Origin: Vulcanimicrobiota bacterium
GTDB taxonomy: Bacteria; Vulcanimicrobiota; Vulcanimicrobiia; Vulcanimicrobiales; Vulcanimicrobiaceae
Assembly: GCA_963820825.1 (NCBI GenBank)
Contig: CAWGBN010000008.1
Coordinates: 162,011-226,010, forward strand
Reading direction: 5' to 3'
Length of the DNA: 64,000 nt
In this document: positions 34,069 through 50,407 of the stretch, in pieces
Position numbering within the stretch: position 1 is the stretch's first letter
How the letters are laid out: the number at the start of each line of letters is the position of its first letter
The notes under the pieces: model-generated
What the model saw: only the letters and a program-made list of their open reading frames with translations
Database searches by the model: none
What the model was told of the DNA's origin: nothing
Made by a program: the position numbers and the translations under genes

Positions 34069-35865
34069 TTAGCCTTCGGCGGGCGCCGGGCCTGCCGCGG
34101 GTCGCCAGAGACGGCGTCCGATCACGAGGAGCCCGACGACCGCCGCCGCGGCGACCGCGCTCCAGACTAGACCTTGCGCCGGGCGGCCGTAGACGAAGGC
34201 GCCGGCCGCGAAGAGCGCGCCGTAGACCGAGGCTAGGCCGAGCACCCACCCGGCAAGCGCGAGCGTCATCGAATCGGGTGAGGCCGGCAGATCGCACTCG
34301 CGGCGAATCTTCGCCCACCCGGGACCCGCCGGACGGACGCGCGCGTAGAACGAGGCGAGCACGCTGCGCTCGACCGGCGGCGTGCAGTACGTTACCGCGA
34401 TCCACACGACGGTGGTCACGGCGATGGTCGTCAAGAGCACGGTCGTCGTCGCGGCGGTGTGACCGAGTTTGGCGGAGACGAAGAAGGCGACTGAGACGAC
34501 GAACGACGAGAGCATCGCGCTGACCTCGCTCCACGCGTTGATCCGCCACCAGAACCAGCGCAATAAGTAGATCAAGCCCGTTCCCGCTCCGATCGAGAGC
34601 AGCAGGTTGAAAGCATTCTTCGCGTTGTCGAGCGCGAGCGTGAAGAGCACGCCGAGCGCCATCAACAGCGCGGTGACCAGCCGTCCGGCAAAGACCAGCT
34701 CGCGTTGGGTGGAGTTCGGACGAATGAAGCGCTGGTAGAAATCGTGCACGAGATACGAGGTGCCCCAGTTGAGATGGGTCTCGATCGTCGAGCGATAGGC
34801 GGCGAAGATTCCCGCGACCATGAAGCCCGCGAATCCGGCGGGCAAGTACACCAGCATCGCCGGATAGGCGATGTCGTTGCCGATCAAGTTCGGCGCCACG
34901 CCGGGAAAGCGCAGTTGAATATCGTGCAGCGTCGGATAGACGATCGTCGAGGCGAGAGCGACGACGATCCACGGCCACGGCCGCAGTGCGTAGTGCATCA
35001 CCTGAAAGGCGAAGGTGCCGAAGAGCGCATCCGATTCCGTCTTCGCGGCGAGCATGCGCTGCGCGACGTAGCTGCCGCCGCCCGGTTCCGCGCCGGGATA
35101 CCAGACCGACCACCAGACCACCGTGAGCGGGATGACGAAGATGCCTAGCGCCGTCGGCCAGTCTTTGAAGTTCGGTAATATCGCCAGCGCGCTCGGATTG
35201 GCGCGCGTGAAATGAGCGATGAGGCCGTGCAGACCGCCGACGCCGGGCGCGTGGATCGCGAAGTAGGCCGCGGCGAACGCCGAGGTTATCGTGATGCAGA
35301 ACTGGATCGTGTCCGTCACCATGACGCCCCAGAGTCCCGCCGTCGCGGCAAAGATGATGGGCACGACGACCGAGATCGCGAGCGTCTCGGCGCGCGGCCA
35401 GCCGAAGAGAACGCCGGCAATCTTCACCAACGCCAAGTTGACCGTTGCGATGATCCAGCAGTTGAAGAATAGGCCGAGATAGAGCGCGCGAAAGCCGCGC
35501 ACGAACGATGCCGCGGGCCCGGCGTAGCGCAGCTCGTAGAACTCGAGATCGGTCAGAACGTTCGAACGGCGCCAGAGCCGCGCGTAAAAGAAGACCGTCG
35601 CCATACCGGTGAGCAGGAACGACCACCAGACCCAGTTCTCGGCGACGCCCCCGTCGCGCACCAGATTGGTGACGAGGTTCGGCGTATCGGTCGAGAAGGT
35701 CGTGGCGACGAGCGATATCCCGATGAGCCACCACGGTGCCGCGCGGCCGGCCGCAAAGAACTCGGTGATGTTGCGCCCGGCTCGCCGCGCCAGCACGATC
35801 GCCGGCACGAAGCTCACGCCCAAGGAAACGACGACGATAACCCAGTCGAGCGTCGTTAAGTGCAC
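34069..35865 (-). CDS. sodium:solute symporter (SSS) family transporter
   Basis: 598 aa, more than 12 TM segments, GGxxxxW N-terminal SSS pattern; start overlaps the flhA stop by 10 nt. Confidence 0.8.
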   Translation of the reverse strand: MHLTTLDWVIVVVSLGVSFVPAIVLARRAGRNITEFFAAGRAAPWWLIGISLVATTFSTDTPNLVTNLVRDGGVAENWVWWSFLLTGMATVFFYARLWRRSNVLTDLEFYELRYAGPAASFVRGFRALYLGLFFNCWIIATVNLALVKIAGVLFGWPRAETLAISVVVPIIFAATAGLWGVMVTDTIQFCITITSAFAAAYFAIHAPGVGGLHGLIAHFTRANPSALAILPNFKDWPTALGIFVIPLTVVWWSVWYPGAEPGGGSYVAQRMLAAKTESDALFGTFAFQVMHYALRPWPWIVVALASTIVYPTLHDIQLRFPGVAPNLIGNDIAYPAMLVYLPAGFAGFMVAGIFAAYRSTIETHLNWGTSYLVHDFYQRFIRPNSTQRELVFAGRLVTALLMALGVLFTLALDNAKNAFNLLLSIGAGTGLIYLLRWFWWRINAWSEVSAMLSSFVVSVAFFVSAKLGHTAATTTVLLTTIAVTTVVWIAVTYCTPPVERSVLASFYARVRPAGPGWAKIRRECDLPASPDSMTLALAGWVLGLASVYGALFAAGAFVYGRPAQGLVWSAVAAAAVVGLLVIGRRLWRPAAGPAPAEG

Positions 35866-37910
35866 GCTAGCGCGTTCGGTTCGTCCTCTGCGATGACCTC
35901 GGCCGGGGCGAGTGCGATCTCGTTGGGAAGCTCGCCGTAGGCGTAGACGCTCACGCGAATGCCCGAGCGCTGCAAGAAATCGGCGAGCACGGGACGCAGC
36001 GATGCGGTGCAGACGACCGCGGCGCGTTCGCGCGGCACTTCAGCAGCATACGCTTCGATGCGGGCGCGCAGGGCGAGCGCCGTTGCGGGGTCGAGCCCCT
36101 CCGCTCCATGACCGCACCACGCTGCAACGAGCCTTCGTTCGAACGGCGCCTCGAAGATCACCGGCTCGAGCCGGACGAGCCCGCGGCGGCGTAACAGGTC
36201 CGGTACGATCGCGCGCCGCGCGGCCTCGGCGAGCTCTTGCGGATCGGCCGTCCGCGCCTCGAGCATTGCTTCGAGCACCGCGACGGGATCGCGCGGCCAC
36301 GCGCACTCGCGCAAGAGCAGAGCGAAGGCGCGATGCACCGATCCGAACGGCAGGGCCTCGCCGCCGACTTCCTTGATCAGGGCGGGCACGGTCGCGCGCA
36401 GGTGCTCGAGCAGCGTGTGGAGCTCTTGCCGGCCGACGAGCTCGGCGGCGTGCGTTCGCGCGATCTCGGCCAAATGCGACCCGAGCACCGAGATCGGATC
36501 GAAGACGAGCGCGCCCGCATTGCTCGCGCGCTCGCGCCCCGAGGGTTGGATCCACGCCGCCGGCAATCCGTAGACGGGCTCGCGCTCGATTCGCGCGTTG
36601 AAATGCGCGAGGATCGCTTCGTCTGCGACGGCCAGGAGCCGATCGAGATCGAGCCTGCCGGCGCCTTCCAGACGGTCCCGCACGCGGATTCCGTAGGTGC
36701 GCGGATCGCGTGCGAGATCGTCGCGGAGGCGAACGCCGGGAAGCACGACGCCGATGTCCGCTGCAAGTGCGCGACGCACCTCGCCGATGCGATCGAGTAA
36801 AGCATCGGCAAGGGGTTGTGCGAGAAGCAGTGCGAGATCGGCACCGATCTCGATTGCGATCGAATCGACGCCGACGAGGCCGAGTGCGAGCTCGGGACGC
36901 CGCATCGCGTGACGCTTCGCGCGCTCGCGCGCGCCGATCGTCTCCTCTTCCCGCCGGCGGCGTTGCCGTTGCGCGGCATGAGCGACCGCGAACGCACCGG
37001 CCCCGAGAACCACGAAGAGCGGCCGCGGCAGAGCGGGAACGAGCGCGAGTGCAAGCAGGAGCGCGCCGGCGCTGCGCAGCGCATCGGGGCGTGCGAGCAG
37101 CTGTGAGGCGAGGTCGGCTCCCAACGCGCCGTCGGAAGCGACTCGCGTGACCATCATCCCCATCGCCGTCGAGATGAGAAACGCGGGCAGCGTCGTGACG
37201 AGCGCGTTGCCGATGGAGAGCAGCGCGAAGGTGTCGAGCGCGTCGAGCGGTGAGAGCGCGTGATAGGCGATACCGACGATCACGCCGCCGCAGAGATTGA
37301 GCGCCACGATCACGAGCGCGGCGACCGCATCGCCCTTGACGAACTTTCCGGCCCCGTCCATCGCGCCGTAGAAGTCCGCCTCCCGCTGCACGGCCTCTCG
37401 CTTGCGCCGCGCGCCTTCGCCGTCGAGCACGCCGGCATGAATGTCGGCGTCGATCGCCATCTGTTTTCCCGGCATCGCATCGAGCGTGAAGCGTGCCGCA
37501 ACCTCCGCGACGCGCTGCGAGCCGCTTGCAATGACGACGAACTGAATCGTCACCAAGATCGAGAAGACGATGAGCCCGACGACCAAGTTTCCGTGGACGA
37601 CAAATGCGCCGAAGGCCGGAATGATCGCGCCGACCGCGCCCGGCGTCGCACCTGAGGTCAGAATGAGGCGCGTCGCCGAAACGTCGAGCGAGAGCCGAAA
37701 GAGCGTCGCGACAAGCAGCGCGGGTGCGAAGGCCGAAAACTCGAGCGGATCGTCGACGGTCACCGAGAGCAGCAGCACGAGCGACGAGCCGAAGACGTTG
37801 ACCCCCAAGAGCACGTCGAGCAGCCATGGCGGCAGCGGAACGATCAGAATTCCGACGATCGCCAACAGCAGCGCCGCAAAGGCGTAGACCGCCCGCCTCT
37901 TCGCGTTCAC
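35856..37910 (-). CDS. flhA: flagellar/T3SS export gate protein FlhA (SctV family)
   Basis: Start GTG 37910; FHIPEP signature FTLDAMPGKQMAIDAD, GAMDGAGKFVKGD; 684 aa. Confidence 0.9.
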   Translation of the reverse strand: MNAKRRAVYAFAALLLAIVGILIVPLPPWLLDVLLGVNVFGSSLVLLLSVTVDDPLEFSAFAPALLVATLFRLSLDVSATRLILTSGATPGAVGAIIPAFGAFVVHGNLVVGLIVFSILVTIQFVVIASGSQRVAEVAARFTLDAMPGKQMAIDADIHAGVLDGEGARRKREAVQREADFYGAMDGAGKFVKGDAVAALVIVALNLCGGVIVGIAYHALSPLDALDTFALLSIGNALVTTLPAFLISTAMGMMVTRVASDGALGADLASQLLARPDALRSAGALLLALALVPALPRPLFVVLGAGAFAVAHAAQRQRRRREEETIGARERAKRHAMRRPELALGLVGVDSIAIEIGADLALLLAQPLADALLDRIGEVRRALAADIGVVLPGVRLRDDLARDPRTYGIRVRDRLEGAGRLDLDRLLAVADEAILAHFNARIEREPVYGLPAAWIQPSGRERASNAGALVFDPISVLGSHLAEIARTHAAELVGRQELHTLLEHLRATVPALIKEVGGEALPFGSVHRAFALLLRECAWPRDPVAVLEAMLEARTADPQELAEAARRAIVPDLLRRRGLVRLEPVIFEAPFERRLVAAWCGHGAEGLDPATALALRARIEAYAAEVPRERAAVVCTASLRPVLADFLQRSGIRVSVYAYGELPNEIALAPAEVIAEDEPNALACT

Positions 37911-38917
37911 GCTTCCGACGCGTTCGCTCGCGAAAGGGTCGCGACGACTTCGGCAACGGCTACGAAATGAATCGCCGGAATCGGTTCGCCGGTCCGCCCG
38001 TCGCGGAAGAGCGCGCGAGCCAGCACGACGTCCTCGACGACCGGAATGCGGTATCGTTCCGCGAGCGCGCGCACGTGCAGCGCGGCCGCCTCCGCGGCGC
38101 GCGCCAGCACGCGCGGCACGGGAACCGCCGGCGGCCGGTATTCGAGCGCGACGGCGACGTGCTGCGGGTTCGTTACGACGAACGACGCCTCTTTGAGCCG
38201 GCCGATCCCGCCGCGCAGCAACGCACGATGCAGCGCGCGCCGGCGCCCGCGCGCGATCGCATCGCCCTCTTCTTCTTTCGCCTCGCGTTTGCGCTCCTCG
38301 AAGCTCATTCGCAGATTGCGCAGCCAGGCGCGCCGTGCCGCCGCATACTCGCCGACGGCGAAGCAGAATCCGACCGTGCACGCGGCCACCGCTACCTCGC
38401 GCGCCGCGGCCCAGGCCGTCGCCGCGACGTCTCCGACCGACGACGCCTGCAACGACGCCGCGCAGCTCCACGCGACGAACGGCGTCATCGCCGCGCTCGC
38501 ACAGACGAACGCAAGCGCCGCTCGCAGCGAATGCGCGAGCGTTTCGCGAGAGAGAATTCGCTTGACGCCTTCGACCGGATTCAACCGCTCGAGTTTTACG
38601 GCGATCGAAAGTGCGGCAAGGCCGCCGTTCTGAGCGAGGTTTCCGAGCGCACCCGCCAAGGCGGCGGCGCCGACGGGTAAGCAGGCTACGGCAAGGATCA
38701 GCGCGCTTGCCGGGGTCGCTCGCCCGGCGAAACCGGCGACGAATGCATTGCTCGCCGCGGCGGCAAGCACCGGGGCAGTCGCCATCGCGGTCAAGGCCGC
38801 CGCGGCGAATGCGAGATTCGCCGCGAGCTCGCTCGAACGTGCGACGTTACCCTCGCGCAGCGCCTTGGCAATCCGGCGCGGCGTCGCCTCGAACGGTTTC
38901 TCTGCGGTATCGCTCAC
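37907..38917 (-). CDS. flhB: flagellar/T3SS export switch protein FlhB (SctU family)
   Basis: Start GTG 38917 (SDTAEKPFEATPRRIAKALREGNVARS); autocleavage-site variant NPQH in VVTNPQHVAVAL. Confidence 0.85.
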   Translation of the reverse strand: MSDTAEKPFEATPRRIAKALREGNVARSSELAANLAFAAAALTAMATAPVLAAAASNAFVAGFAGRATPASALILAVACLPVGAAALAGALGNLAQNGGLAALSIAVKLERLNPVEGVKRILSRETLAHSLRAALAFVCASAAMTPFVAWSCAASLQASSVGDVAATAWAAAREVAVAACTVGFCFAVGEYAAARRAWLRNLRMSFEERKREAKEEEGDAIARGRRRALHRALLRGGIGRLKEASFVVTNPQHVAVALEYRPPAVPVPRVLARAAEAAALHVRALAERYRIPVVEDVVLARALFRDGRTGEPIPAIHFVAVAEVVATLSRANASEA

Positions 38918-39618
38918 GGAATTTCCAACAACGGCGAAGGCAAGCGTTGCGTGACGACCGGAACCGCGATCGCGGTCGCGATCAGCGCGGCCGCGAATGC
39001 CAGCGGAAAGGCCAGCGTGAAGCTGCCGAAGCGGGGGATCACGCGCGACAGGGCGCCGAGCGCGATCTGCACGACGAAGGCCAGCGCGATCGCCGGCGCG
39101 GCAACCTGCAGTGCGACGAGCGCAATCGTCGATGCAAATGCCGCCGCGTACGCATGCCATCCCGCCGGACGCATCTCGGCAGCGAGCGGAATGCGAGCGA
39201 AGCTCTCGCTAAAGCCCAGCAGCACGCTGCGATAGGCGCCTGAGAGAAAGAATCCGCCGGTGAACGCCAGCGACCAGACGCGGCCGAAACCGCTCGGCGC
39301 GACGAGTTCCAGGCTCGGCGCGATCGCCTTCACCCCGACGTAATCGTCGACGACACGGCCGCCGGCATAGGCTGCATCGTAGATCAGCGAAGCCGTCATG
39401 CCGATCGCGCCGCCTACGAGAGACTCTAGCAGCAGCGCCGCCACGATCGTCGCGCCGTCCACTCCCTTCGCTGCCTTGCCGATGCCCGGCAGAATCGCGC
39501 CGGCAAGCGCCAGCGCAAAGCCCGCGCGAAGCGGTGCCGGTACGCTCGGATGCGAGAATCCGGGCGCGCGAAAGACGAAACCCGCGCACCGGGCGAAGAC
39601 GAGCAGCCCGGTTACCAT
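38914..39618 (-). CDS. fliR: export gate protein FliR (SctT family)
   Basis: 234 aa polytopic; FARCAGFVF..PGF N-terminus typical of FliR; position between fliQ and flhB. Confidence 0.8.
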   Translation of the reverse strand: MVTGLLVFARCAGFVFRAPGFSHPSVPAPLRAGFALALAGAILPGIGKAAKGVDGATIVAALLLESLVGGAIGMTASLIYDAAYAGGRVVDDYVGVKAIAPSLELVAPSGFGRVWSLAFTGGFFLSGAYRSVLLGFSESFARIPLAAEMRPAGWHAYAAAFASTIALVALQVAAPAIALAFVVQIALGALSRVIPRFGSFTLAFPLAFAAALIATAIAVPVVTQRLPSPLLEIP

Positions 39619-39881
39619 CCGCTATCGATCGTCGGAATCTCCGCGATCGCGCGATCGAAGAGCGCGCCGAGCAGGTGCATCGCGCCGGGCCCGAAGAGCG
39701 CAATCATCAGACCGACCGCAACGATCTTCGGAAGGAGCGTCAGCGTCTGCTCCTGCACTTGAGTCGCCGCCTGCACGACGGCGATCGCCGTTCCCACTGC
39801 AGCGGCGACGGCCAGCATCGGCAGCGCAATGGTCGCGGTCGTGATCAGCGCATCGTGCAGTAAGCCGCTGAGGACGTCCAC
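39612..39881 (-). CDS. fliQ: export gate protein FliQ (SctS family)
   Basis: 89 aa two-TM hairpin; QATQVQEQTLTLLPKI motif. Confidence 0.85.
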   Translation of the reverse strand: MDVLSGLLHDALITTATIALPMLAVAAAVGTAIAVVQAATQVQEQTLTLLPKIVAVGLMIALFGPGAMHLLGALFDRAIAEIPTIDSGW

Positions 39882-40827: not shown

Positions 40828-40838
40828 CGGCTCACTCC

Positions 40839-41492
40839 TTATCGGAAGCTTGCGGCAACGCCTCCGCAGAGCAGCGCCCAGCCGTCGACCATGACGAAGA
40901 GCAGGAGCTTGACCGGCAACGAGACGACGGGCGGACTCAGCATCATCATGCCCAGCCCCATCAGCATTGCCGCAACCGCCAAGTCGATGGCAACGAACGG
41001 CAGATAGAGCGCGAATCCGATCGCAAAGGCACTGCGCAGCTCGCCGACGACGAAGGCGGGAACCACCACCACGATCGGCACCTGCCGCTGCCGTTCGGGC
41101 GGGCGGTGCGCGATGCGTTCGAAGATGGCGACGTCCGCGGCGCGAGTCTGGCGCAGCATGAAGGCGCGCAACGGGACGACCGTCCGGGCAATCGCCTGCG
41201 ACGGCGCGATCGTGCCCCGCGCGTAGGGAGCGAGTGCTTCGCGCTCGATTCGTTCTCCAGTCGGTGCCATGACGACGAACGTCAGGACGAGCGCGAGCCC
41301 GGTGAGAACGGCGTTGGGCGGCAATGCCGAGGCGCCGATCGCCGAACGCACCAGCGAGAGCACGACTACGATGCGGACGAACGAGGTGCACGTCACCAGC
41401 AGCAGCGGCACGAGGGAGAGCATCGTGAGCGCGAGGAGCAGGTCGAGTGGGAGGGCCGCGTGTCGCGAAGCCGTTAGCAGCTCGAAAGGCAC
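40839..41492 (-). CDS. fliP: export gate protein FliP (SctR family)
   Basis: Start GTG 41492; TSFVRIVVVLSLVRSAIG, AFAIGFALYLPFVAIDL, GMMMLSP motifs. Confidence 0.9.
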   Translation of the reverse strand: MPFELLTASRHAALPLDLLLALTMLSLVPLLLVTCTSFVRIVVVLSLVRSAIGASALPPNAVLTGLALVLTFVVMAPTGERIEREALAPYARGTIAPSQAIARTVVPLRAFMLRQTRAADVAIFERIAHRPPERQRQVPIVVVVPAFVVGELRSAFAIGFALYLPFVAIDLAVAAMLMGLGMMMLSPPVVSLPVKLLLFVMVDGWALLCGGVAASFR

Positions 41493-41502
41493 GGAGAAAT
41501 CC

Positions 41503-41769
41503 TTACAGCGCGAGCAACTCGGTGACGCGCAAGGCAAAACGCTCTTCGACCGCGACGATCTCACCGCGCGCGATCGGCCGGTCGTTGACGAGCAGCTCGA
41601 CCGGCTGACTGATCGGGCGATCGAGTTCGACGATCGAGCCCGTACCGAGTCTCAGCACCTCGGCGACCGACATGCTGCAGGTGCCGAGCCGAACGCTGAG
41701 GTGCAGCGGCACGTGCATGAGCAAGCCGATGTTCTCGCGCGCGTCCGGCGGCTTCGCGTCTCCCGCCAT
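41503..41769 (-). CDS. fliN: FliN-like SpoA-domain C-ring protein
   Basis: 88 aa; VPLHLSVRLG...SVAEVLRLGTGSIVELD...VELLVNDRPIARGEIV. Confidence 0.8.
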   Translation of the reverse strand: MAGDAKPPDARENIGLLMHVPLHLSVRLGTCSMSVAEVLRLGTGSIVELDRPISQPVELLVNDRPIARGEIVAVEERFALRVTELLAL

Positions 41770-41775
41770 CGCCGA

Positions 41776-42558
41776 CTAGATCGCTTCGCGAACGGCGTCG
41801 ACGAAGAACGCGAATCGTCCGTTGCGCGCGCCGCCGCTTCCACGCGCGATCCGCCGGCCATGTGCCGTCAGTTCTCCCCGCTGGAAGGCCGTGGGATCGA
41901 TCGGCATCGTCGCTCCGACGGTCAGGCGGGTAATCGCTTCCGCTTGCGTCGTACCGAGATCGAGTGTCGCGCGAACCGGCAGCTCGACGGCGCTGAGGTG
42001 GGCGGCTTCGAGGCAGCCCCGCGTCTCGGGCGACGGATCGCGCGAGAGCGCGATGCCGATGCGCGCACGCACCGGCTCTTCGACCGAGAGCTCGAAGTAG
42101 GTGACAAAGCCGTCGATTGCGGCGGCGCGTTCGATCGCGCGGCCATCGCGCGTTCCGCAGACGGCGCTGAAGTTCGTTGCGATCCCGGCGACGAGCCGAT
42201 CCAACACGTCACATTCGATCGGCGAGAGCCCGCGCTCGACCGGTGCTGCCGGCGATTCGCCGAAGAGCGCCGACGCGAGCGCGCCGGCATCGCAGGCGCG
42301 AAGGACGATCGCCGCATCGGCAACCTCACCGCGCACGCGATAGAGACGCGCATTGCAAAGAATCGCGCGCCACGCCTGCGGCGCAGGGATGAGCGGCGCG
42401 AAGAGCCGCATGGCAACGGCTACGCCGAGCAGGGAGCTCAAGGTTTCGCGAACGCCGTTGGCTACGACGCATGCAGCGCTGATCGGTAACGACGAACGCG
42501 TTTCGAATCGGGCTTCTTTCAAGCGTCTTCCGGAAGGGGGAAAGCCCAGCGACTTCAT
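41776..42558 (-). CDS. FliM/FliY/SctQ-like C-ring protein (divergent) with C-terminal SpoA-like domain
   Basis: Position upstream of fliN; C-terminus LPVRATLDLG...ITRLTVGATMPID...GELTAHGRRIARGS resembles the SpoA fold; no CheY-binding N-terminal peptide seen. Confidence 0.5.
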   Translation of the reverse strand: MKSLGFPPSGRRLKEARFETRSSLPISAACVVANGVRETLSSLLGVAVAMRLFAPLIPAPQAWRAILCNARLYRVRGEVADAAIVLRACDAGALASALFGESPAAPVERGLSPIECDVLDRLVAGIATNFSAVCGTRDGRAIERAAAIDGFVTYFELSVEEPVRARIGIALSRDPSPETRGCLEAAHLSAVELPVRATLDLGTTQAEAITRLTVGATMPIDPTAFQRGELTAHGRRIARGSGGARNGRFAFFVDAVREAI

Positions 42559-43277
42559 TTGAGCAGATCCATCGTGGTCTTGCCGAGGTGCACTTTGGCG
42601 GCTTCGGCGGCTTGCAAGGCATCGAAGGCCAAGTACGCTTCCTTCAATCGCACGAGGCTTTCGTCAACGTCGATCCGGCTGCGTTCGCGTCGCATCGGTA
42701 CGAGCGATCCAAAGGTTGCGTCGCCGGCGAGCCCGACCTCGGCGCTGACGCCGGCCGGGGCGACGGACCGGCCGCCTTCGCTCGTCTGCAGACGCGTACC
42801 GGCGGGGAATCGCGCGAGTACGATTCGACCGGCGACGACGCGCTGCAGCTCTCTCGCTCCACTGCGCGGATCGACGATCTCCCGCCGGTAAGTTAGGCTG
42901 CCGTCGGCTTCGATCCCGACGTCGCGAACGCGCCCCAGTGCAACGTCGACCGGATCGACCGCGAGCTCGTCGAGTGCGCCGCCGGGCGCCCGTAGGCCGA
43001 GAATCGGAGTGCCGTTGCTGCCGACTAACCGTCCGCCGTGCAGCGCGAAGGACCCGTCGCGGGTGTACGATCGCTGCCCGCGTTCGTCGGCGGTGATAAA
43101 GTACGCGCCTTCGGGAGCGGCGACGGCGAGCGGCTCGAGCGTGAAATCGGAGAGAGGCGCGGGCGTGGCAACGTCGTCGTGCATCGGCAGCGCACCCGGC
43201 GTGTAGGCACGACGAACGTCGGCGGCGCGTTCGGCGATTCGATCGAGCGCGGCGCTCAGCGTCGAGTTCAGGAACAT
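42555..43277 (-). CDS. flagellar hook/rod family protein (FlgE/FlgF/FlgG-like), short
   Basis: DGSF..GGRLVGSNGTPILG core and C-terminal helix RIDVDESLVRLKEAYLAFDALQ like the rod/hook C-terminal heptads; occupies the flgE slot. Confidence 0.55.
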   Translation of the reverse strand: MFLNSTLSAALDRIAERAADVRRAYTPGALPMHDDVATPAPLSDFTLEPLAVAAPEGAYFITADERGQRSYTRDGSFALHGGRLVGSNGTPILGLRAPGGALDELAVDPVDVALGRVRDVGIEADGSLTYRREIVDPRSGARELQRVVAGRIVLARFPAGTRLQTSEGGRSVAPAGVSAEVGLAGDATFGSLVPMRRERSRIDVDESLVRLKEAYLAFDALQAAEAAKVHLGKTTMDLLK

Positions 43278-43867
43278 GCGACCGCTCCGATCGCGCAGAA
43301 CTCAACGCCTCGAGCCGCGAGCGCGATCCGCGCCTGCGAGAGCGCACGCGCGACGACGTTGCGGAGCTCCGGGCGGCAGATGGCGAGCAGCGTCGTTCGC
43401 CCAGCGCTCGTCTGCAAGATGACGTGGACGCGAGCGCTGCCGCGCCCGAGCGAAAACGTCGCCCTCTTCGGGTTGCCGCCGGATGCGCTGAATGCGCGCT
43501 CGATTCGTTCGGCGAGCCGTCCGCGGCCGGCGCTGCGGTGGAGCGGAGTTGCGCTCTCGCGGCCGGGAGCACTCGCGATACGCTTCGTTCTTATCGCAGG
43601 CGGCCGAAGGATCTCTGAATTGCGGCGCAACGATGGCGCCGCGTTTTCGCGCCGGGCCGCGAGCGGATGCGCGCGCGCGCTTGCGGCCGTCGGGACGGCT
43701 CTCGGTTTTGCCGATTGCGAAGCCATGCCCAGCGCCGAATACCACGCCTGTGAGAGCGCGCGCCGGTCGATCGCGCCCAGCGGCGCCGCCAAGATGCTGA
43801 CCTCGAGCTGATGCGTCATCATGGAACCGATCATCGCAACGGCATATGAGCGACCGCTCAACGTCAC
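43268..43867 (-). CDS. hypothetical, possible FliK/SctP-like ruler (T3S4-like C-terminus)
   Basis: Sits at the fliJ/fliK position; C-terminus RVHVILQTSAGRTTLLAICRPELRNVVARALSQARIALAARGVEF resembles the FliK C-terminal domain pattern. Confidence 0.35.
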   Translation of the reverse strand: MTLSGRSYAVAMIGSMMTHQLEVSILAAPLGAIDRRALSQAWYSALGMASQSAKPRAVPTAASARAHPLAARRENAAPSLRRNSEILRPPAIRTKRIASAPGRESATPLHRSAGRGRLAERIERAFSASGGNPKRATFSLGRGSARVHVILQTSAGRTTLLAICRPELRNVVARALSQARIALAARGVEFCAIGAVACS

Positions 43868-44907
43868 GTTGCCGAGTTGAGAACGAGGAGCTCGGCGATC
43901 GCTCGCAACTCCGCGACGGTCTCGACATCAGCCGATGCGAGGCGGCTCTGGCGAAGGAAGGCTTCGACGCGGTTCTCCGCCGCGATCGCCGCCGCAATCG
44001 AACGACCCTGCGGAATGATGCCGAGTGAACGCGCATCCTCAACGCGATCGAGCGCCGCAATGGCTGCGCGCACGAGCATGGCATCGGTTTGGTGCGCTTC
44101 GCCGACGACCGCATCCATCGTGCGGCTCGCGCTGGCCGCAACGTCGACGGCCGGGAACCTTCCGGCGTCGGCGAGGCGCGCGCAGAGCGCGATATGTCCG
44201 TCCAAGAGCGAGCGCGCCGCCTCGCTCACCGGATCGCGTGCGTCGCCATCTTGAATCACCGTCGCAACGAGCGTGATCGAACCGCCGGAGAGTTCGCCGG
44301 CAACTTCTATGAGACGCGCCATCTCCGCGAAGACGCTGGGCGGATAGCCGCCGCGGCCCGCGCTCTCGCCGGCCGCGATCCCGATCTCGCGCAGCGCCGC
44401 TGCAAACCGTGCCAGACTGTCGAGGATGAGCAGCACGTGCAGTCCCCGTTCGCGCAGCGCGCCGGCATGTGCGAAAGCGACGTGAGCGGCCCGTACGCGT
44501 TCGTGCGCCCCGCGATCGCTGGTGGCGCAGACGACGGTCGTTCGCCGGTCGCAGCCTTCGATCCAAAGCTGTGCTTCGCGGCCGCGTTCACCGACGAGCG
44601 CGACGACGACGGCATCCGCGGCACATCCCGCGACGATCGTTTCGATCAACGTCGTCTTTCCGGCACCCGGCGGCCCGAAGATGCCGACGCGCGCGCCGCG
44701 TCCGATCGTCAGCAACGCGTCGACGACGCGGATCCCGGTCCAGAGTGGTACGGCGATCGGCGCACGCTGCGCGGGCGCCGGAGGGTGAAGCTCGACGGCG
44801 ACGGTGCGCCCCTGCAAGGGCTTACCGCCGTCGAGCGGCAGACCCCACGCATCGATCGCTCGTCCGAACGCACAGGTCCCTAAAGCAAGGCGGTGCGGCG
44901 CGGTCAC
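43864..44907 (-). CDS. fliI: flagellar/T3SS ATPase FliI (SctN family), N-terminally short
   Basis: Walker A GPPGAGKT, Walker B LLILDSLARFA, GGYPPSVF, SITLVATV; only 347 aa. Confidence 0.9.
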   Translation of the reverse strand: MTAPHRLALGTCAFGRAIDAWGLPLDGGKPLQGRTVAVELHPPAPAQRAPIAVPLWTGIRVVDALLTIGRGARVGIFGPPGAGKTTLIETIVAGCAADAVVVALVGERGREAQLWIEGCDRRTTVVCATSDRGAHERVRAAHVAFAHAGALRERGLHVLLILDSLARFAAALREIGIAAGESAGRGGYPPSVFAEMARLIEVAGELSGGSITLVATVIQDGDARDPVSEAARSLLDGHIALCARLADAGRFPAVDVAASASRTMDAVVGEAHQTDAMLVRAAIAALDRVEDARSLGIIPQGRSIAAAIAAENRVEAFLRQSRLASADVETVAELRAIAELLVLNSAT

Positions 44908-45377
44908 GCCAACGCGGCGAGCGCCGCGTCGAGGCGCGCGGAGAGCGTTACGTCGATCGTTCCGCTTCGCAACTGGAGCGCAACGTCGCCCCGCTCCAAC
45001 GTGCGGTCGGCAACTCGTTCGAACTCAATCTCGTGCAGCGCGGCGAGGTCGTCGGGATGGACGCGGACCGCGAGCACGTTCTCGCATTCGAACCGATTGC
45101 AGGCCGCCGCGACGATCGCGCGGATCTCCACCGGCCGCAGCTCGAGCTCACGCGCGAGCACGTCGCGCGCGATGCGCGGTAAGAGCTCTTCGATAGCCGC
45201 TTCGAGCGCGTCGGCAAGAGCGGCGCGAAAGCGGCGCGCCGCGCGGATCGCCTCGTCCCGATCGGTCGCGTCGGGGACGGACGCCAGGCCGTCCCGTTGC
45301 GGCGACACCGGCTCGACTGCCGGATCGCTTGGCGTCGGACGCAAGAACGCTGCCAGCGGGACGAAGGGGCTAGACAT
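44904..45377 (-). CDS. fliH: FliH/SctL-like ATPase stator/regulator
   Basis: Start ATG 45377; position between fliF and fliI; C-terminal pattern VRVHPDDL...V..D..L..G.V.L....G.IDV. Confidence 0.55.
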   Translation of the reverse strand: MSSPFVPLAAFLRPTPSDPAVEPVSPQRDGLASVPDATDRDEAIRAARRFRAALADALEAAIEELLPRIARDVLARELELRPVEIRAIVAAACNRFECENVLAVRVHPDDLAALHEIEFERVADRTLERGDVALQLRSGTIDVTLSARLDAALAALA

Positions 45378-46842
45378 GCCGCCGTAGCAGTTCGTCGGGG
45401 TTCGAGAGCAGAGGCGTGTGCCGGCGCTGCATCCGGTTGACGATCGCTTCGCGCTCGTGCGGCGGATAGAGCTCGAGAACGGCCGTCGCCGTCGCCGCGG
45501 GCAGCGCGCTGATGATCGCCGCTGCGGCGTGCGGCGGCTCCTCTTCCAGCATGCTGCGTACGCGCGCCGGCGGGAAACCGGCGGCGGCCTTCGTCGCACG
45601 ATCGACGGCCGCGCGCTCGACGAACGCCTGCACGAACGCAACTGCCGCCGGTAACGCAATCTTCGCGGCCGCAACGAATCCCGCGGCGACGATGATCGCC
45701 GGAAAGAGCGCGACGAATGCACCGTAGATCAGCCACCGGATCCTTGCGCGCGCGACCGGCGCATGGCGAAAGGCAACGGCCTCGACGGCAAGCGTGTCGC
45801 CGCGCCGGGCGTCGTAACCGAGCGCGGCAGCGGCGAGTTCGCGCACTCTGGCCAGATCCAACTCGCGCGCGCGATCGACGAAGACCGCCGCCGAGAGCCG
45901 TTTTACTCCTCCGGGCGGCGCAATCGAAAGCGCCTCGCGCGTCTCGTCCCCGCGGTCTTCGGCCTCGTCGAGTTGACGGTATCGCTTCCCGTTTGCGTCA
46001 TAGCTTTCGCTGCGGCGAGTCCGGACCACCGCCGTCCCGCTCCCGGGTGCGCGGGTCACGTCGCGTTGGGATCTTCGCGCGACCTCGTATTCCGGGCGGA
46101 CCCGCACGATTGCAGCTCCCTCACCGAACGCGGCATCGAGCGCCGATTGCAGCGATCGCTGCAGATCGGCCGGGTCGTCGCTCGTTGCGGGATCGTCGCC
46201 GAGTGCGACGCCGCGGTCGTCCAGAATTGCGACGCGTGCCGGTTCGAGTTGCGGAACGCTCGCCGCGACGAAGGACCGGATACCCGCAATCGCCTGATGC
46301 GAGAGCCGCGCACCGGGATGCAGGCGCAACCGGACCGACGCAGTCGCATCCCTGCTCGATTCGTCGGCAAACTCCGCCGGCTTGGCCGGCGCGACGATGA
46401 CTCGCGCGTCGTCGACGCCGTCGATACCGCGCAATCCGGCTTCGATATCGCCGGCAAGGCCGGCTCGCGTCTGCGCTTCGATGACGGCCTGCGGCGTGAG
46501 CGCACCGACGTTCGCCAGCGCCTCAACGGTACTCGATAGATGCGCGTGCGGAACGCCGGCCAGCGATAGGCGGAGTAAGAGATCGGCGCGACGCCGAGCA
46601 TCGACGACGACGTTATCGGTCGTCGGCGTAAACGGAACGTTCCACGCTGCGAGACGCTCCTCGACCTCCGTTCGCTGTTCGGGATAGAGCGGCGACGAGA
46701 AGAGCGCGACTCTCGTCTGATGTCCGAGGGCGAGCACAGCGATGGCAAGGACGCATGCGACGCAGAGCGCGCCACTGGTGACGTAGCGGACGGCTCGCGG
46801 CAACGTATTCCAACGAGCGAGGAGCGGCAGTACGCCGTTCAT
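45370..46842 (-). CDS. fliF: MS-ring protein FliF with extended FliG-like cytoplasmic tail
   Basis: Start ATG 46842; N-terminal TM, YscJ/FliF ring-building region (LYPEQRTEVEERLAAWNVPF, GIDGVDDARVIV), second TM, then about 80 cytoplasmic residues. Confidence 0.85.
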   Translation of the reverse strand: MNGVLPLLARWNTLPRAVRYVTSGALCVACVLAIAVLALGHQTRVALFSSPLYPEQRTEVEERLAAWNVPFTPTTDNVVVDARRRADLLLRLSLAGVPHAHLSSTVEALANVGALTPQAVIEAQTRAGLAGDIEAGLRGIDGVDDARVIVAPAKPAEFADESSRDATASVRLRLHPGARLSHQAIAGIRSFVAASVPQLEPARVAILDDRGVALGDDPATSDDPADLQRSLQSALDAAFGEGAAIVRVRPEYEVARRSQRDVTRAPGSGTAVVRTRRSESYDANGKRYRQLDEAEDRGDETREALSIAPPGGVKRLSAAVFVDRARELDLARVRELAAAALGYDARRGDTLAVEAVAFRHAPVARARIRWLIYGAFVALFPAIIVAAGFVAAAKIALPAAVAFVQAFVERAAVDRATKAAAGFPPARVRSMLEEEPPHAAAAIISALPAATATAVLELYPPHEREAIVNRMQRRHTPLLSNPDELLRRHV

Positions 46843-46853
46843 CCGCCCGGTCC

Positions 46854-47117
46854 TTAGACTTGCATGTTCAAGACGGACTGCACGGATTGAACGACCCGCT
46901 GCGCCGTCGAGGTCGCGATTGCGAGCGCGACGTCGGCCTGGGCGCGCTCGTAGACGGCGTCCTGCAGCGTTCCGTGGCCATAGGCGAAGCCTTCCTCGGC
47001 GCGGTTGGCGCCGGTCAGCAGAGCGTCGGCGGCGTCGAGCGCTCGGGCAAAATCGTCCGCTCCGACGGTTCGGGCCGCCGTCGCCGGAACGTCGGGGACG
47101 AACGGTTCGACTCTCAC
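46854..47117 (-). CDS. fliE: hook-basal body complex protein FliE
   Basis: 87 aa; FARALD...A....G.....AV....A....A....QRVVQSVQSVLNMQV like the FliE C-terminus; position after flgC. Confidence 0.7.
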   Translation of the reverse strand: MRVEPFVPDVPATAARTVGADDFARALDAADALLTGANRAEEGFAYGHGTLQDAVYERAQADVALAIATSTAQRVVQSVQSVLNMQV

Positions 47118-47443
47118 AGTCGCTCCAAGTCGAGCGTCTTTTCGGCCAGTCTCTTGCCGACGTCGAAGATCGAGGCATCCGACTCATACGCGCGCGACGC
47201 GTTCATCACGGCGATCATCTCGGTGAGGATGTCGACGTTTCTTCCGCTCTCGCTGCGCGTGCCGACGAAGTCGACGCGGGCGTCGTCGGGGTCGCCCTCG
47301 ATGCGAAAGAGCGGAATCAATCGGGAATACTCGGCGTTCGGGCCTGCCGCCTCGGCGGCGGCGACGTTGCGAGCAGCCACGTCCAGCGCCGCTCGCTGCG
47401 CATCCATTCCGGCCGCCGCGGCGTCGAGCAGCTCGATCCTCAT
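47114..47443 (-). CDS. flgC: proximal rod protein FlgC (short)
   Basis: N-terminal AGMDAQRAALDVAARNVAAAEA and C-terminal VDILTEMIAVMNASRAYESDASIFDVGKRL match rod-family terminal helices. Confidence 0.75.
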   Translation of the reverse strand: MRIELLDAAAAGMDAQRAALDVAARNVAAAEAAGPNAEYSRLIPLFRIEGDPDDARVDFVGTRSESGRNVDILTEMIAVMNASRAYESDASIFDVGKRLAEKTLDLERL

Positions 47444-47658
47444 TTTGCGACCGCCTTAATCTCTGCAAAGCGAGCGCGTTGCGCGGAGAGCAGCGCCTCG
47501 GTGAAGATCGCAGCTTGCGCCGTCGCCGCAAGCGCAGCGTCGGCGGAGCGGCCGGCGTTCTCGCCCGCATTGGCTCGGGCAACCGCGGCCTGCGCATCGT
47601 TGAGACGCGTCCGGGACGCCAAGAGTGCATCGCGCAGGGTATCACCGACGTCAAACAT
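47440..47658 (-). CDS. small helical protein in the flgB position (FlgB-like assignment tentative)
   Basis: 72 aa, first gene of the operon, ATGA overlap with flgC; lacks a clear rod N-terminal motif. Confidence 0.35.
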   Translation of the reverse strand: MFDVGDTLRDALLASRTRLNDAQAAVARANAGENAGRSADAALAATAQAAIFTEALLSAQRARFAEIKAVAK

Positions 47659-47817
47659 GCGGAGAGTTTAGCAGCGCCGAGTGGCCGCCAGCCGTACCCG
47701 AGATGGACGCCATGTGACGTGAGAGGGCGATGAGGAACGAGTTAGCAAGCACTGATTCTGGGGTAAGAATCCTGTGAAACCGCTAGCGAGCGCCCTTATA
47801 GGCCGGTGCGGCTAGGC

Positions 47818-47823
47818 TATAAT
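47818..47823 (+). promoter_or_regulatory. candidate sigma70-type -10 box (TATAAT) for the YXWGXW gene
   Basis: Perfect TATAAT about 20 nt upstream of GGGAGG-N5-GTG; no good -35 seen. Confidence 0.35.
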
Positions 47824-47844
47824 ACTCTCGGAAAGGGAGGATCA

Positions 47845-48915
47845 GTGAAAACCTTAAGACCGCTCTCCGCAATCATCGCAACCATTCTTATTGCGGCAAT
47901 GCCCTTGGTCGCGTCGGCGCAAGTCAGCATTGGCGTTGGCTTTACCATCGGGAGCGCGCCGCCGCCGCTGCCATACTATTCGCAGCCCGAGGCGCCGTAT
48001 CCGAACTATCAGTGGCAGCCGGGCTACTGGGCCTGGGGCCCGGCCGGATACTACTGGGTGCCCGGCACGTGGGTTGCTCCGCCGACCGTCGGCGTGTTGT
48101 GGACCCCGGGATACTGGGGTTATAACAACGGCTATTACGGCTGGAACAACGGCTACTGGGGCGCGACCGTCGGCTTCTACGGCGGTATCAACTACGGCTA
48201 CGGCTACCCGGGCAGCGGCTTCTACGGCGGCGGCTGGAACGGCGGCAACTTCGCCTACAATACCGCCGTCGCCAACGTCAACCGGACCGTGATCCACAAC
48301 ACCTACAACAAGACCGTCATCAACAAGAACGTCTGCAACAACTGCAAGAACGTCAGCTTCAACGGCGGCAAAGGCGGAACGACCGTTCGTCCGACGTCCG
48401 GGGAGATCCAGGCCCGGAAGAATGGCCGCCCACCGACTACCGCCCAGGTTCAGCAAGCCAAGGTTGCCGCTCAAGATCGCAATCTCTACGCGAACGTCAA
48501 CAAAGGCAAACCGCCGGTGACGGCCGTGCAGAAACCGATTAGCGATCCCAAACAGCTCCCGAAGTTCACGCCGGTGACGACTGCCGATAAGCAGGCTGCT
48601 CAGAAGCAAGTCCATACGGCAAACAATGCCAACAACTCGATGCAGAACAAACCGGCGAACCAGAACCCGAACAAGCCGGCCAATAACACCATGCAGGGCA
48701 AGCCTCCTTCGTCGCAGCAGCATCACAATCAACCGCCGAACAACTCGATGCAGTCGTCGACGCACAAGCCGCCGCAGAACTCGACGAACAAAGGCAACAC
48801 GCATCAAGGCAGCACGCAGAGCAAGCCGCCGCAAGGCCAGAATCAGAACAAGAACGGCCAAGGCAAACCGCCGCAGAACAATAATAACGGCGGAAACAAA
48901 CCGCCTCGCGCTTAG
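47845..48915 (+). CDS. secreted YXWGXW-repeat protein with N/Q/P/K-rich low-complexity tail
   Basis: GTG 47845 preceded by GGGAGG; signal peptide ...MPLVASAQ; repeats GYWAWGPAGYYWVPGTW, GYWGYNNGYYGW; tail rich in NKPxxN and QN. Confidence 0.75.
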   Translation: MKTLRPLSAIIATILIAAMPLVASAQVSIGVGFTIGSAPPPLPYYSQPEAPYPNYQWQPGYWAWGPAGYYWVPGTWVAPPTVGVLWTPGYWGYNNGYYGWNNGYWGATVGFYGGINYGYGYPGSGFYGGGWNGGNFAYNTAVANVNRTVIHNTYNKTVINKNVCNNCKNVSFNGGKGGTTVRPTSGEIQARKNGRPPTTAQVQQAKVAAQDRNLYANVNKGKPPVTAVQKPISDPKQLPKFTPVTTADKQAAQKQVHTANNANNSMQNKPANQNPNKPANNTMQGKPPSSQQHHNQPPNNSMQSSTHKPPQNSTNKGNTHQGSTQSKPPQGQNQNKNGQGKPPQNNNNGGNKPPRA

Positions 48916-48934: not shown

Positions 48935-48965
48935 GGGGACTCCGAAAAGGAGTTCCCACTTTTTT
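48935..48965 (+). terminator. intrinsic terminator
   Basis: 9-bp stem GGGGACUCC/GGAGUUCCC (one G-U), GAAAA loop, then ACUUUUUU; abuts the stop of the convergent gene. Confidence 0.6.
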
Positions 48966-49974
48966 ATCGCGCGATCGGCAGCCTTTGCGCGTCGAGTGGT
49001 ACACCGAGCATCAACCGCGTGACCTCGTCGTAATTCTCGACGCCGGCCGCAATCCGATTGCTCTTGAGGTAGACGTTATAGGTGCGCCACGTCCAGTGGG
49101 CGAGCATCACGTTGATATGCCGTGCGTCGCGACGGCGCAGGGCGGCGAAATCTTGCCAGACGAGCGGCACGAACTCGCGATGGGCGTATCGTCGCTTCTG
49201 CGGCAGATAGAGAAAGAGCTCGAGCCATCCCGAGTATTGCATGACCGGATCGGGTGAGCGCAGACAGGTGACGATCGCGAGATAGTTCGCTTCGTCTTCG
49301 CGGGCGTACGCGGCGTCGTGGCTCCACTCGTGCGCGAGATCGAACGGGCGCTCGAACCAGAGGAGGTCCGAGGCGAGCGCGACGTTGAGGGTGAGCGGAT
49401 TGATGAATCCGCTCGTGCCCGTCGCGAGCATGAAGGGATTCGCGACCGTCGGCTTCGGCTCGCCGACCGAGGGCGTCCAGTCGTCGCCGGCGCGCCGCAC
49501 CGCGGGCAGCCACGCCGTAAAGAGCGCATCGCGGTCGAGCGGCATCGTCGCGCGCGCGTGCGCCGCGGCGGCGAGCTGGTTCATCTCTGAGATCGCCTGC
49601 GCACGCAGCGCCGTTGCCTTGCCCGGCGTCACGGCAGCGGCGTCGAACTCGACGCGCGCTTCAAGCGGCGCGCGCGCGTAGTTCCAACCCCAGCTCAGTT
49701 CGAACCAAATTGCGTAGAGTCCAAGTATCGCGGCGCAGTCGAGGAGCAGCATTCCGAAATCGCGCGAACGCTTCGTGCGACCGCGTGCGAAGATCGCGAT
49801 CCGCCAAGCGATCGCCGCGATGCCGGCGAGACCGGCGACGTCGCCGAGCGACCATGGCAACGGATGCGTGATCGTGAAGGCGAGGTGCTCCCAACCCGGA
49901 TAGGCCCCGTTGACGTATGCCCGCTCGATCCATCCGGCCGAGGGTTGCCAAAGCAAAGCGACCGCGCCAAGCAC
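48964..49974 (-). CDS. DUF3810-like membrane-associated putative zinc hydrolase
   Basis: N-terminal TM segments and HEWSH metal motif (LAHEWSHDAAYAREDEANY). Confidence 0.6.
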   Translation of the reverse strand: MLGAVALLWQPSAGWIERAYVNGAYPGWEHLAFTITHPLPWSLGDVAGLAGIAAIAWRIAIFARGRTKRSRDFGMLLLDCAAILGLYAIWFELSWGWNYARAPLEARVEFDAAAVTPGKATALRAQAISEMNQLAAAAHARATMPLDRDALFTAWLPAVRRAGDDWTPSVGEPKPTVANPFMLATGTSGFINPLTLNVALASDLLWFERPFDLAHEWSHDAAYAREDEANYLAIVTCLRSPDPVMQYSGWLELFLYLPQKRRYAHREFVPLVWQDFAALRRRDARHINVMLAHWTWRTYNVYLKSNRIAAGVENYDEVTRLMLGVPLDAQRLPIAR

Positions 49975-50000
49975 GATCGCGAGAACTTTCGGGAGCGTCT

Positions 50001-50399
50001 TTAGCGTTTGCTGTACTGGAATCGCTTGCGGGCGCGCTTGCGGCCGTACTTCTTCGATTCCTTTTCGCGCGGATCGCGCGTGAGGAAACCGTTCTTGCGC
50101 AGCGTCTCCTTGAGCGACTCGTCGACCGCCAGCAACGCGCGAGCGATGCCGTGGCGAACCGCACCGGCCTGACCGGTGACGCCGCCGCCTTCCGCTTTTA
50201 CCCGGACGTCGAAGCGCGAGATGCTCTGCGTCGCCTCGAGCGGCTGACGCACGATCTGCAGGAGCTGAGGACGCGGAAAGTATTCTTCGACCGGCTTACC
50301 GTTCACGATGATGACGCCCTGACCGAGCGAGAGCTTCACTCGCGCGACCGCACGCTTTCTGCGTCCGGTCGATTGCACGACGTCGATCGATTCGTCCAA
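50001..50399 (-). CDS. rpsI: 30S ribosomal protein S9
   Basis: GRRKRAVARV, GGG.TGQAGA.RHGI.RAL, C-terminal KRFQYSKR. Confidence 0.95.
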   Translation of the reverse strand: MDESIDVVQSTGRRKRAVARVKLSLGQGVIIVNGKPVEEYFPRPQLLQIVRQPLEATQSISRFDVRVKAEGGGVTGQAGAVRHGIARALLAVDESLKETLRKNGFLTRDPREKESKKYGRKRARKRFQYSKR

Positions 50400-50407
50400 A
50401 GCGGCTC

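Follow-up and report, generated by a model that had tools for sequence, protein, structure and literature searches.

A FliF protein with a FliG middle-domain-like tail in a flagellar-type export gene cluster without fliG, conserved among the Vulcanimicrobiota (Eremiobacterota)

FliG is deemed an indispensable core protein of the flagellum, where it joins the MS (membrane-supramembrane) ring to the C (cytoplasmic) ring and takes up the torque of the stator. The canonical contacts are those of the C-terminal peptide of FliF with the N-terminal domain of FliG (FliG_N), of the EHPQR motif of the FliG middle domain (FliG_M) with the GGXG loop of the FliM middle domain (FliM_M), and of the FliG C-terminal domain (FliG_C) with MotA. 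Here, we describe a flagellar-type gene cluster in which no fliG was found and in which the MS-ring protein FliF carries a FliG_M-like tail; the cluster is located in a stretch of 64,000 nucleotides (the window; contig CAWGBN010000008.1, positions 162,011 to 226,010) from the genome of a soil bacterium of the Vulcanimicrobiota (GenBank assembly GCA_963820825.1).

Fusions of FliF with FliG have been described before. The FliF of Chlamydiaceae continues into a region with homology to FliG_M, for which possible binding to SctQ was suggested (Bergeron 2016, PMC4768692), and the same work cites FliF-FliG fusions that were made in Salmonella in the laboratory and that still assemble and rotate (PMC4768692). 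For the origin of injectisomes, Abby and Rocha (2012) proposed that these arose from flagella via an intermediate that lacked elements essential for motility (PMC3459982). The host phylum, Eremiobacterota or Vulcanimicrobiota (formerly WPS-2), has a sole cultured member, Vulcanimicrobium alpinum, which is reported to be without flagella and without a flagellin gene and to move by type IV pili; in its published gene table, fliN alone appears (PMC9758169). No description of the present system was found in the literature searched on flagellar and type III secretion systems of Eremiobacterota or on FliF-FliG fusions. The fusion of FliF with FliG_M is not new in itself, since the Chlamydiaceae precedent lowers its novelty, while a self-contained, phylum-wide FliG-less flagellar-type system appears to be undescribed so far.

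The fliF gene of the window (45370..46842, minus strand; fliE directly upstream) encodes a protein of 490 amino acids (aa) with a first transmembrane segment (TM1), ring-building motifs RBM1-2, a partial RBM3, a second transmembrane segment (TM2), and the FliG_M-like tail. The periplasmic part matches Pfam YscJ_FliF (1e-24) and YscJ_FliF_C (3e-13), both above the gathering cut-off (GA), and the hydrophobic segments lie at about aa 20-40 and aa 368-405; with the NCBIfam fliF equivalog model the protein scores 65.7 bits against a cut-off of 129.75, and by NCBI's rule it is not an equivalog. A preliminary description of this DNA held that the ATG of fliH overlaps the stop codon of fliF by 8 nt, with no fliG in between, and the codons read in the DNA agree: on the minus strand, the TAG stop of fliF occupies positions 45372-45370, and the ATG of fliH (44904..45377, minus strand; 157 aa, Pfam FliH 5e-11) occupies positions 45377-45375, an overlap of 8 nt that leaves no room for an intervening fliG. 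In E. coli K-12, the fliF/fliG and fliG/fliH junctions are both 8-nt overlaps with a geometry like that of the fliF/fliH junction here, and this shared geometry would agree with an internal, in-frame deletion by which one of the two ancestral junctions was left in place.

Past its second transmembrane segment, FliF was said to run on for about 80 residues, ending in ...RVRSMLEEEPPHAAAAIISALPAATATAVLELYPPHEREAIVNRMQRRHTPLLSNPDELLRRHV; the translation is identical, with 83 residues. This cytoplasmic tail (aa 408-490; 45373..45621, minus strand; first placed at 45373-45620, i.e. FliF residues ~408-490 after the second hydrophobic segment) is predicted to comprise a FliG_M-like four-helix fragment (aa ~425-474) and a short terminal helix. 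Residues 425-472 match Pfam FliG_M (PF14841; E 4.3e-6; 27.3 bits, with the gathering cut-off at 25), and the match spans positions 1-48 of the 76 profile positions. When a profile built from 26 tails was run against the whole set of PDB sequences, T. maritima FliG, over the EHPQ..R region, gave the top three matches and the only flagellar ones (E ~1, insignificant alone), and hhalign set the tail in the same register on residues 114-160 of E. coli FliG (with a probability of <1% versus a single sequence, which served for residue mapping only). These alignments place E435-P436-P437-H438 on EHPQ and R470 on R160 of FliG: E435, P437 and R470 of the EHPQR motif are kept, and its H and Q are replaced by P436 and H438, respectively (EPPH..R).

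The AlphaFold2 (AF2) model of the tail, with a mean predicted local distance difference test score (pLDDT) of 74.5, has helices at tail residues 18-27, 30-39, 42-50 and 54-67, plus the terminal one. When this model was searched with Foldseek, the eight best PDB matches were all FliG, followed by MgtE-N (probabilities 0.8-1.0, query template-modelling scores 0.5-0.66, E 0.15-1.5), and they included the FliG_M chains from the FliG-FliM crystal complexes 4fq0, 4fhr and 4qrm. The proposal that the tail is FliG_M-like is thus borne out by profile comparison (Pfam, above threshold) and by structure comparison (FliG_M, then MgtE-N), and we regard as sound its identification, from profile matches and a predicted model, as a fragment of the FliG middle domain with the first four helices (the armadillo-like motif) and about 50 homologous residues. 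MgtE_N is also the second, weaker Pfam match of the tail (E 2e-3); as a primary identity it was rejected, for it scores below FliG_M and below its own threshold, and the genomic context is flagellar.

The tail contains the most conserved stretch of FliF, which is near invariant (RVRSMLEQEPPHAAAAIISALPAATATAVLELYPPHEREAIVxRMQRR) among 31 homologues that are 64-79% identical overall. Over 50 tail codons, the nine closest genomes (59-79% identical overall) each differ from the window by 13-23 synonymous and 1-5 non-synonymous changes, and the three most divergent genomes have 8-13 non-synonymous ones; for all genomes compared, the ranges are 11-23 synonymous and 1-13 non-synonymous differences per genome. 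Outside the tail, FliF has 0.7-1.2 non-synonymous differences per synonymous one (computed for five of the nine close genomes). The tail is under strong purifying selection at the protein level and is the most constrained part of FliF, as the excess of synonymous changes demonstrates and as is expected for an interaction surface.

For the partner side of such a surface, the cluster encodes a FliM homologue of 260 aa (41776..42558, minus strand), with a FliM middle (CheC-like) domain and a FliN-type C-terminal domain. By sequence, its sole Pfam match is FliMN_C (3e-6). In the AF2 model, the N-domain has a pLDDT >90, with low confidence for the first 22 residues, and Foldseek matches the model to full-length Salmonella FliM in the C ring (E 2e-12) and to FliM_M domains, including those of FliG_M co-crystals (E 7e-7 to 5e-5). 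Because the model matches both full-length FliM and FliM_M, this neighbour is, by predicted structure, a true FliM; it had been called FliM-like, and the matches confirm the FliM middle domain, the known partner of FliG_M.

The GGXG loop of this FliM is replaced by F99-G-E101-S (FGES), which hhalign places on GGDG of E. coli FliM (at negligible probability against this single sequence; the alignment served solely to map residues). F99 and E101 are invariant among 30 close homologues, and the loop reads F-R-E-E and F-N-E-S in relatives whose FliF is ~33-37% identical. Together with a downstream Glu (R-x-L-S-x-I-E in most members), the FxES loop aligns to E. coli FGGDG...REFTHTE, and it is kept as far as relatives with ~33%-identical FliF. 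The N-terminal peptide that binds phosphorylated CheY (CheY-P; LSQxEIDALL type) is not present on the FliM, whose N-terminus reads MKSLGF...; residues 1-25 comprise the conserved MKSLGF motif and, where the CheY-P-binding peptide would be, a conserved segment, RSSLPxSAACVVANGVRETL.

Both sides of the FliG-FliM contact are hence present, altered, and fixed within the clade (EPPH..R; FGES), and the invariance of the altered residues on both proteins fits a co-adapted pair; we infer that the tail probably still contacts FliM. We consider it fairly probable that the protein is a natural fusion of FliF with a FliG middle-domain fragment that docks FliM, in a streamlined, flagellum-derived and phylum-conserved type III export system. 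An ancestral fliF-fliG pair would have been reduced by in-frame deletion to one gene that kept the first four FliG_M helices, and each FliF of the MS ring would present the FliG_M-like motif (E435-P-P-H438, R470) to the FliM middle domain. The FliM/FliN ring would be tethered straight to the MS ring without FliG, the ATPase would follow through the FliN-FliH connection, and the machine would export without rotation, assembling no more than a short rod-like axial structure and passing further substrates. The preliminary description had already suggested that such a fusion could tether the FliM/FliN-like proteins to the MS ring with torque generation discarded, and this interpretation is supported in part.

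Alternatively, the tail could be derived from FliG_M and yet not dock FliM: it could stack with the neighbouring tails as a face of the M ring, or bind FliH, the cytoplasmic domain of FlhA, or a regulator. For such a role speak the contact residues that are changed on both sides (EHPQ to EPPH; GGXG to FGES) and the translational coupling of fliF with fliH in every locus, and a stacking role would be in line with the established behaviour of the FliG_M armadillo-like motif, which stacks against the corresponding motif in the C-terminal domain of the adjacent FliG. However, just two partners are known for the EHPQR face, FliM_M and the FliG_C armadillo-like motif, and this system has no FliG_C; the operon has kept a conserved FliM whose middle domain is intact; and the changed residues are clade-invariant on both proteins. 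We regard a tail without FliM docking as unlikely.

The fusion of FliF with a FliG_M-like fragment extends well beyond the window. A search with FliF returned >1000 homologues, and the best 120 are 63-100% identical, nearly all of them close to 490 aa in length and nearly all with the three Pfam domains, FliG_M included, in their precomputed annotation; the named ones among these 120 belong mostly to Candidatus Eremiobacteraeota, Cybelea, Baltobacter and Tumulicola, with a few metagenome-assembled genomes labelled otherwise. The survey of related genomes that the preliminary description had proposed covered 15 loci, those of 12 Eremiobacterota genomes and of three metagenomic relatives (L013, L015 and L016; FliF ~30-37% identical), and the fusion was found in all of them. 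The 12 Eremiobacterota genomes, all species representatives, share a common gene order with no fliG at the locus; the 8-nt overlap of fliF and fliH (ATGnnTGA or GTGnnTGA) is present in 15/15 loci, and the three metagenomic relatives keep fusion and overlap in clusters that are without fliG, too.

In a search of 1.8 billion cluster representatives, the fused family (~480-512 aa) was traced to ~33% identity, with tails of the form E-P-P-H..AAA..S.LP...A.AVL......R..I..R. In farther members, with ~35-37% identity across the matched stretch and 29-30% in the full alignment, the tail takes forms such as E-A-P-R-TAAYVL, and in the wider family FliG_M is matched at E up to 0.01 in 24/42 sampled members (best, 6.7e-11). 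A Frigoribacterium FliF, among 14 proteins from a profile search with the distant members, is canonical and without the FliG_M tail. Richer clusters, with roughly twenty flagellar-type genes, are found in L015 and L016 (FliF 33-37% identical): their FliI is of full length, FliJ and a lytic transglycosylase are encoded as well, and there are two additional rod proteins and a sigma-70-family gene with a small open reading frame (ORF) after it; no fliG, mot, hook or flagellin genes were seen within 10 kb. These two clusters may represent a fuller, ancestral form of the FliG-less system.

The other two domains of FliG have no counterpart in the cluster: Pfam FliG_N matched neither FliF nor another protein of the cluster at E up to 0.1, and FliG_C, the absence of which had been pointed out before, has no match in any cluster protein, with FliF stopping ~20 residues past the FliG_M-like segment. 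The fliG gene is absent from its canonical slot, none was recognized in the rest of the 64-kb window by ORF inspection, and none was found in the 15 related loci, where flanks of up to 10 kb were covered; tblastn with the E. coli proteins FliG, FliJ and FliK as queries gave no match in the window or the loci, though such a search is insensitive and uninformative at this divergence. FliF also lacks the C-terminal peptide that binds FliG_N (...LA.E.P..VA.LL..WL type), which is replaced by the FliG_M-like tail; canonical FliFs recovered in the same search keep the usual FliG_N-binding end, whereas the fused family does not, and a canonical FliG would therefore find no attachment site. Genes resembling those for MotA/B, hook, junction, cap, flagellin, P- and L-ring, or secretin were not observed in the operon or the remaining 64-kb window, nor were stator, hook, filament or FliG_C genes seen within 10 kb in the 15 related loci.

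Without FliG_C there is no surface for a stator, and the cluster gene content and the report on V. alpinum (PMC9758169) together indicate that the machine is probably a non-rotating, motor-less and filament-less exporter. The opposite view, that the organism still builds a rotary flagellum from a normal fliG and from stator, hook and filament genes at other sites of the genome, the tail being an accessory, could draw on the flagellar-gene negatives, which cover the window and the related loci while many bacteria split their flagellar genes over several loci; further, a phylogenetic study counts Eremiobacterota among the phyla with sequences that sometimes group near Chloroflexota flagellar genes (which genes is not stated; PMC10284905). 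We consider it very unlikely: FliF is without the FliG_N-binding peptide, fliG is missing from its near-universal position in 15/15 loci, no fliG, mot, hook or flagellin gene lies within 10 kb of even the gene-rich distant clusters, and the cultured V. alpinum, with neither flagella nor a flagellin gene, moves by type IV pili (PMC9758169).

The operon that surrounds the fused fliF spans positions 35856-47658 on the minus strand, as do all of its genes given below, and comprises 15 genes, for the export gate, FliH and FliI, the fused FliF, FliM, FliN, and four rod-type proteins; the order is flgB-position, flgC-like, fliE, fliF-FliG_M, fliH, fliI, X199, FlgE/F/G-D1, fliM, fliN, fliP, (metF), fliQ, fliR, flhB and flhA. 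The first gene (47440..47658; 72 aa) is assigned to flgB by its position only, with no Pfam or NCBIfam match, and is kept in 10/12 loci, the remaining two contigs stopping short of the position. It is followed by a gene for a flgC-like proximal rod protein (47114..47443; 109 aa; Pfam Flg_bbr_C 1e-5; NCBIfam FlgC 1.8e-13, below cut-off) and by fliE (46854..47117; Pfam FliE 2.5e-6, 28 bits versus a GA of 22.4). A further rod/hook-family protein with a FlgE/F/G D1 domain (42555..43277; 240 aa) is predicted by Pfam LlgE_F_G_D1 (1e-6, 29.3 bits versus a GA of 27) and by the NCBIfam FlgEFG subfamily (7e-9).

The FliI/SctN-type ATPase (43864..44907; 347 aa) is matched by Pfam ATP-synt_ab (3e-61) and T3SS_ATPase_C. 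The NCBIfam FliI/SctN models align to it only from model position ~70-98, and its N-terminal domain is thus missing; in FliI, this domain normally binds FliH. The ATPase has 416-433 aa in the distant L013, L015 and L016, and in L005, L007 and L010 fliH and the fliI match lie ~210-225 nt farther apart, which suggests a longer ATPase there as well. A gene for a soluble lytic transglycosylase (SLT), an enzyme that would serve the penetration of peptidoglycan by the rod, is present in the cluster of L003, L005-L009, L011, L013, L015 and L016, between fliI and the X199 homologue or, in L013, straight after fliI; it has been lost in the window's lineage (window, at ~43864; L012; L004; apparently L010).

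The gene X199 (43268..43867) encodes a protein of ~185-199 aa of no recognised family at a conserved position, which it occupies in 10/12 Eremiobacterota loci; an unnamed ORF of ~190 aa is found in the corresponding place in L015 and L016. The protein has an N-terminal motif, LSQAWYSAL, a variable middle rich in Ala, Arg and Pro, and a conserved C-terminal domain of ~60 residues. That X199 might be a FliK/SctP-like ruler is a guess: Pfam Flg_hook was matched at just E 0.24 in 1/12 members, and there was no PDB match.

The remaining genes are fliN (41503..41769; 88 aa; Pfam FliMN_C 3e-25; NCBIfam fliN 92.1 bits versus a cut-off of 84.05) and those for the export gate, fliP (40839..41564; Pfam FliP 1.6e-71), fliQ (39612..39881; Pfam Bac_export_3 5e-20), fliR (38914..39618; Pfam Bac_export_1 2e-30), flhB (37907..38980, start approximate; Pfam Bac_export_2 1e-69) and flhA (35856..37922, start approximate; Pfam FHIPEP 7e-189). 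Between fliP and fliQ lies metF, for methylenetetrahydrofolate reductase (39916-40800; Pfam MTHFR 6e-91); the fliP-fliQ gap is equal in size (~950 nt) in L003, L008, L009 and L011, and larger in L007 and L012. Injectisome-specific (Sct) genes, e.g. for the secretin SctC, SctD, SctK, or needle and translocon proteins, had no match in the cluster. Nearly all components score far below the NCBIfam equivalog cut-offs, with FliN passing and FliE narrowly missing. The system has diverged very far from model flagella and injectisomes alike.

Several points weigh against the docking of FliM by a FliG_M fragment in a selected export system. The similarity of the tail to FliG is only ~48 residues long, and the Pfam score is the only one that is significant on its own, with the PDB hmmsearch, Foldseek and hhalign results each weak. 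Two of the five EHPQR residues differ and the FliM is without GGXG, so that the canonical contact may not be kept, and the negatives for fliG, mot and flagellin cover the 64-kb window and the 15 related loci (up to 10 kb of flank), so that such genes may lie at a distance in this genome. Finally, the window's lineage is reduced in comparison with the distant relatives, with no FliI N-terminal domain, SLT, FliJ, extra rod proteins or sigma factor, and this reduction is compatible with ongoing decay.

Taken further, decay would make the cluster a functionless relic of an ancestral flagellum, in which the low equivalog scores of nearly all components, the loss of SLT and of the FliI N-terminal domain in the window's lineage, the want of the FliJ, extra rod and sigma-factor genes that are seen only in L015 and L016, and the insertion of a housekeeping gene, metF, would find an explanation. 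We consider a relic most improbable, since every ORF is intact, with starts and stops coupled by overlap, and the gene order is kept among genomes with LysS only 78-95% identical and partly in the distant contig L013. Across genomes, identity is 81-94% for FlhA and nearly 100% for the FliF tail, synonymous changes far outnumber non-synonymous ones in the tail, and the >1000 homologues are of near-constant length (~490 aa). Both the relic and the rotary flagellum fit poorly with what was found, namely that the FliG_N-binding peptide is gone, that the ORFs are intact and coupled, and that the tail has the synonymous/non-synonymous pattern described; a natural fusion that docks FliM remains the reading that we prefer.

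The Chlamydiaceae fusion is alike in that a natural FliF with a FliG_M-homologous cytoplasmic C-terminus occurs in a non-flagellated organism, with no separate FliG and with a proposed partner of the FliM/FliN family (SctQ). It differs by a shortened periplasmic region (protein of ~330 aa) and by its setting, orphan flagellar genes beside a complete injectisome, whereas the FliF described here has 490 aa, retains YscJ_FliF and YscJ_FliF_C, and is part of a self-contained operon of 15 genes, among them those for FliM, FliN, the gate, the ATPase and rod proteins, with no injectisome genes. The Salmonella laboratory fusions keep the whole of FliG_M and the torque-generating FliG_C, whereas the protein here ends after ~50 FliG_M residues and ~20 more. 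Of the two laboratory fusions, one is reportedly a deletion fusion that, like the protein here, is without the FliF C-terminus and without FliG_N. In both cases FliF is covalently joined to FliG, and the laboratory fusions prove that a fused protein can be functional (PMC4768692).

With the canonical switch complex, the system shares the FliM_M fold, FliN, the MS ring, the export gate, FliH/FliI, rod genes of the FliE/FlgB/FlgC type, and the E, P and R of EHPQR; unlike there, the locus is without FliG_N, FliG_C, the CheY-binding FliM peptide, and stator, hook and filament genes, and the EHPQR motif and the GGXG loop are altered. The Myxococcales 'ancestral' or needleless type III secretion system, also an export machine minus motility elements, has been read as a protein-translocation device (PMC3459982) and belongs to the non-flagellar (Sct) lineage, whereas the system here keeps flagellum-specific FliE/FlgB/FlgC-type genes and FliF; it would hence be a separate, flagellum-side derivative. 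In the sorting platform of injectisomes (SctD-SctK-SctQ), a FliM/FliN-family ring likewise lies under the inner-membrane ring of a non-rotating type III secretion system; there, SctK and the SctD cytoplasmic domain provide the link, and here the FliG_M remnant fused to FliF would do so. FliE, FlgC-like and FlgE/F/G-like proteins are present in the cluster, which sets it apart from injectisomes. More tentatively, and with less than even confidence, we suggest a third, hitherto undescribed kind of type III machine in Eremiobacterota and uncultured relatives, motor-less and filament-less, with a rod and possibly a ruler, a FliG_M module of 50 residues on FliF in place of FliG and a matching, altered FliM loop, which would have arisen by an independent exaptation of the flagellum for export.

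The operon is flanked by genes for SecDF, a solute symporter and a helicase, and by rpsI-rplM, truA, lysS and greA. The genes DUF3810, rpsI, rplM, truA and lysS (48964-53849) stand beside the operon in all nine Eremiobacterota loci with upstream flank, and the distant contig L013 also has rpsI-rplM-truA-lysS (RpsI 70% and RplM 59% identical); these conserved neighbours suggest that the cluster may have been inherited vertically for long at one chromosomal site. Divergent to the operon, a secreted WXXGXW-repeat protein is encoded (47806-48915, plus strand), with a long low-complexity C-terminal half rich in Asn, Gln, Lys and Pro, and it is kept beside the operon in eight related loci.

The whole phylum, then, keeps an intact and selected flagellar-type export apparatus with FliM and FliN and with no FliG at the locus; of FliG_M, all that is left are the helices that face FliM, and these have become part of FliF. 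For the evolution of flagella and of type III secretion, the new context is that of a phylum-wide FliG-less system in which the contact motif is altered on both proteins. If docking holds true, the protein would define the minimal part of FliG that is needed to hang a FliM/FliN ring on the MS ring, would serve work on C-ring assembly and type III export as a natural control that does not rotate, and would be a testable extant model for the change from a flagellum into a secretion device, in an abundant soil phylum with a cultured representative. If a third kind of machine is indeed represented, it would be a living example of the first, motility-losing step that has been postulated for the origin of injectisomes.

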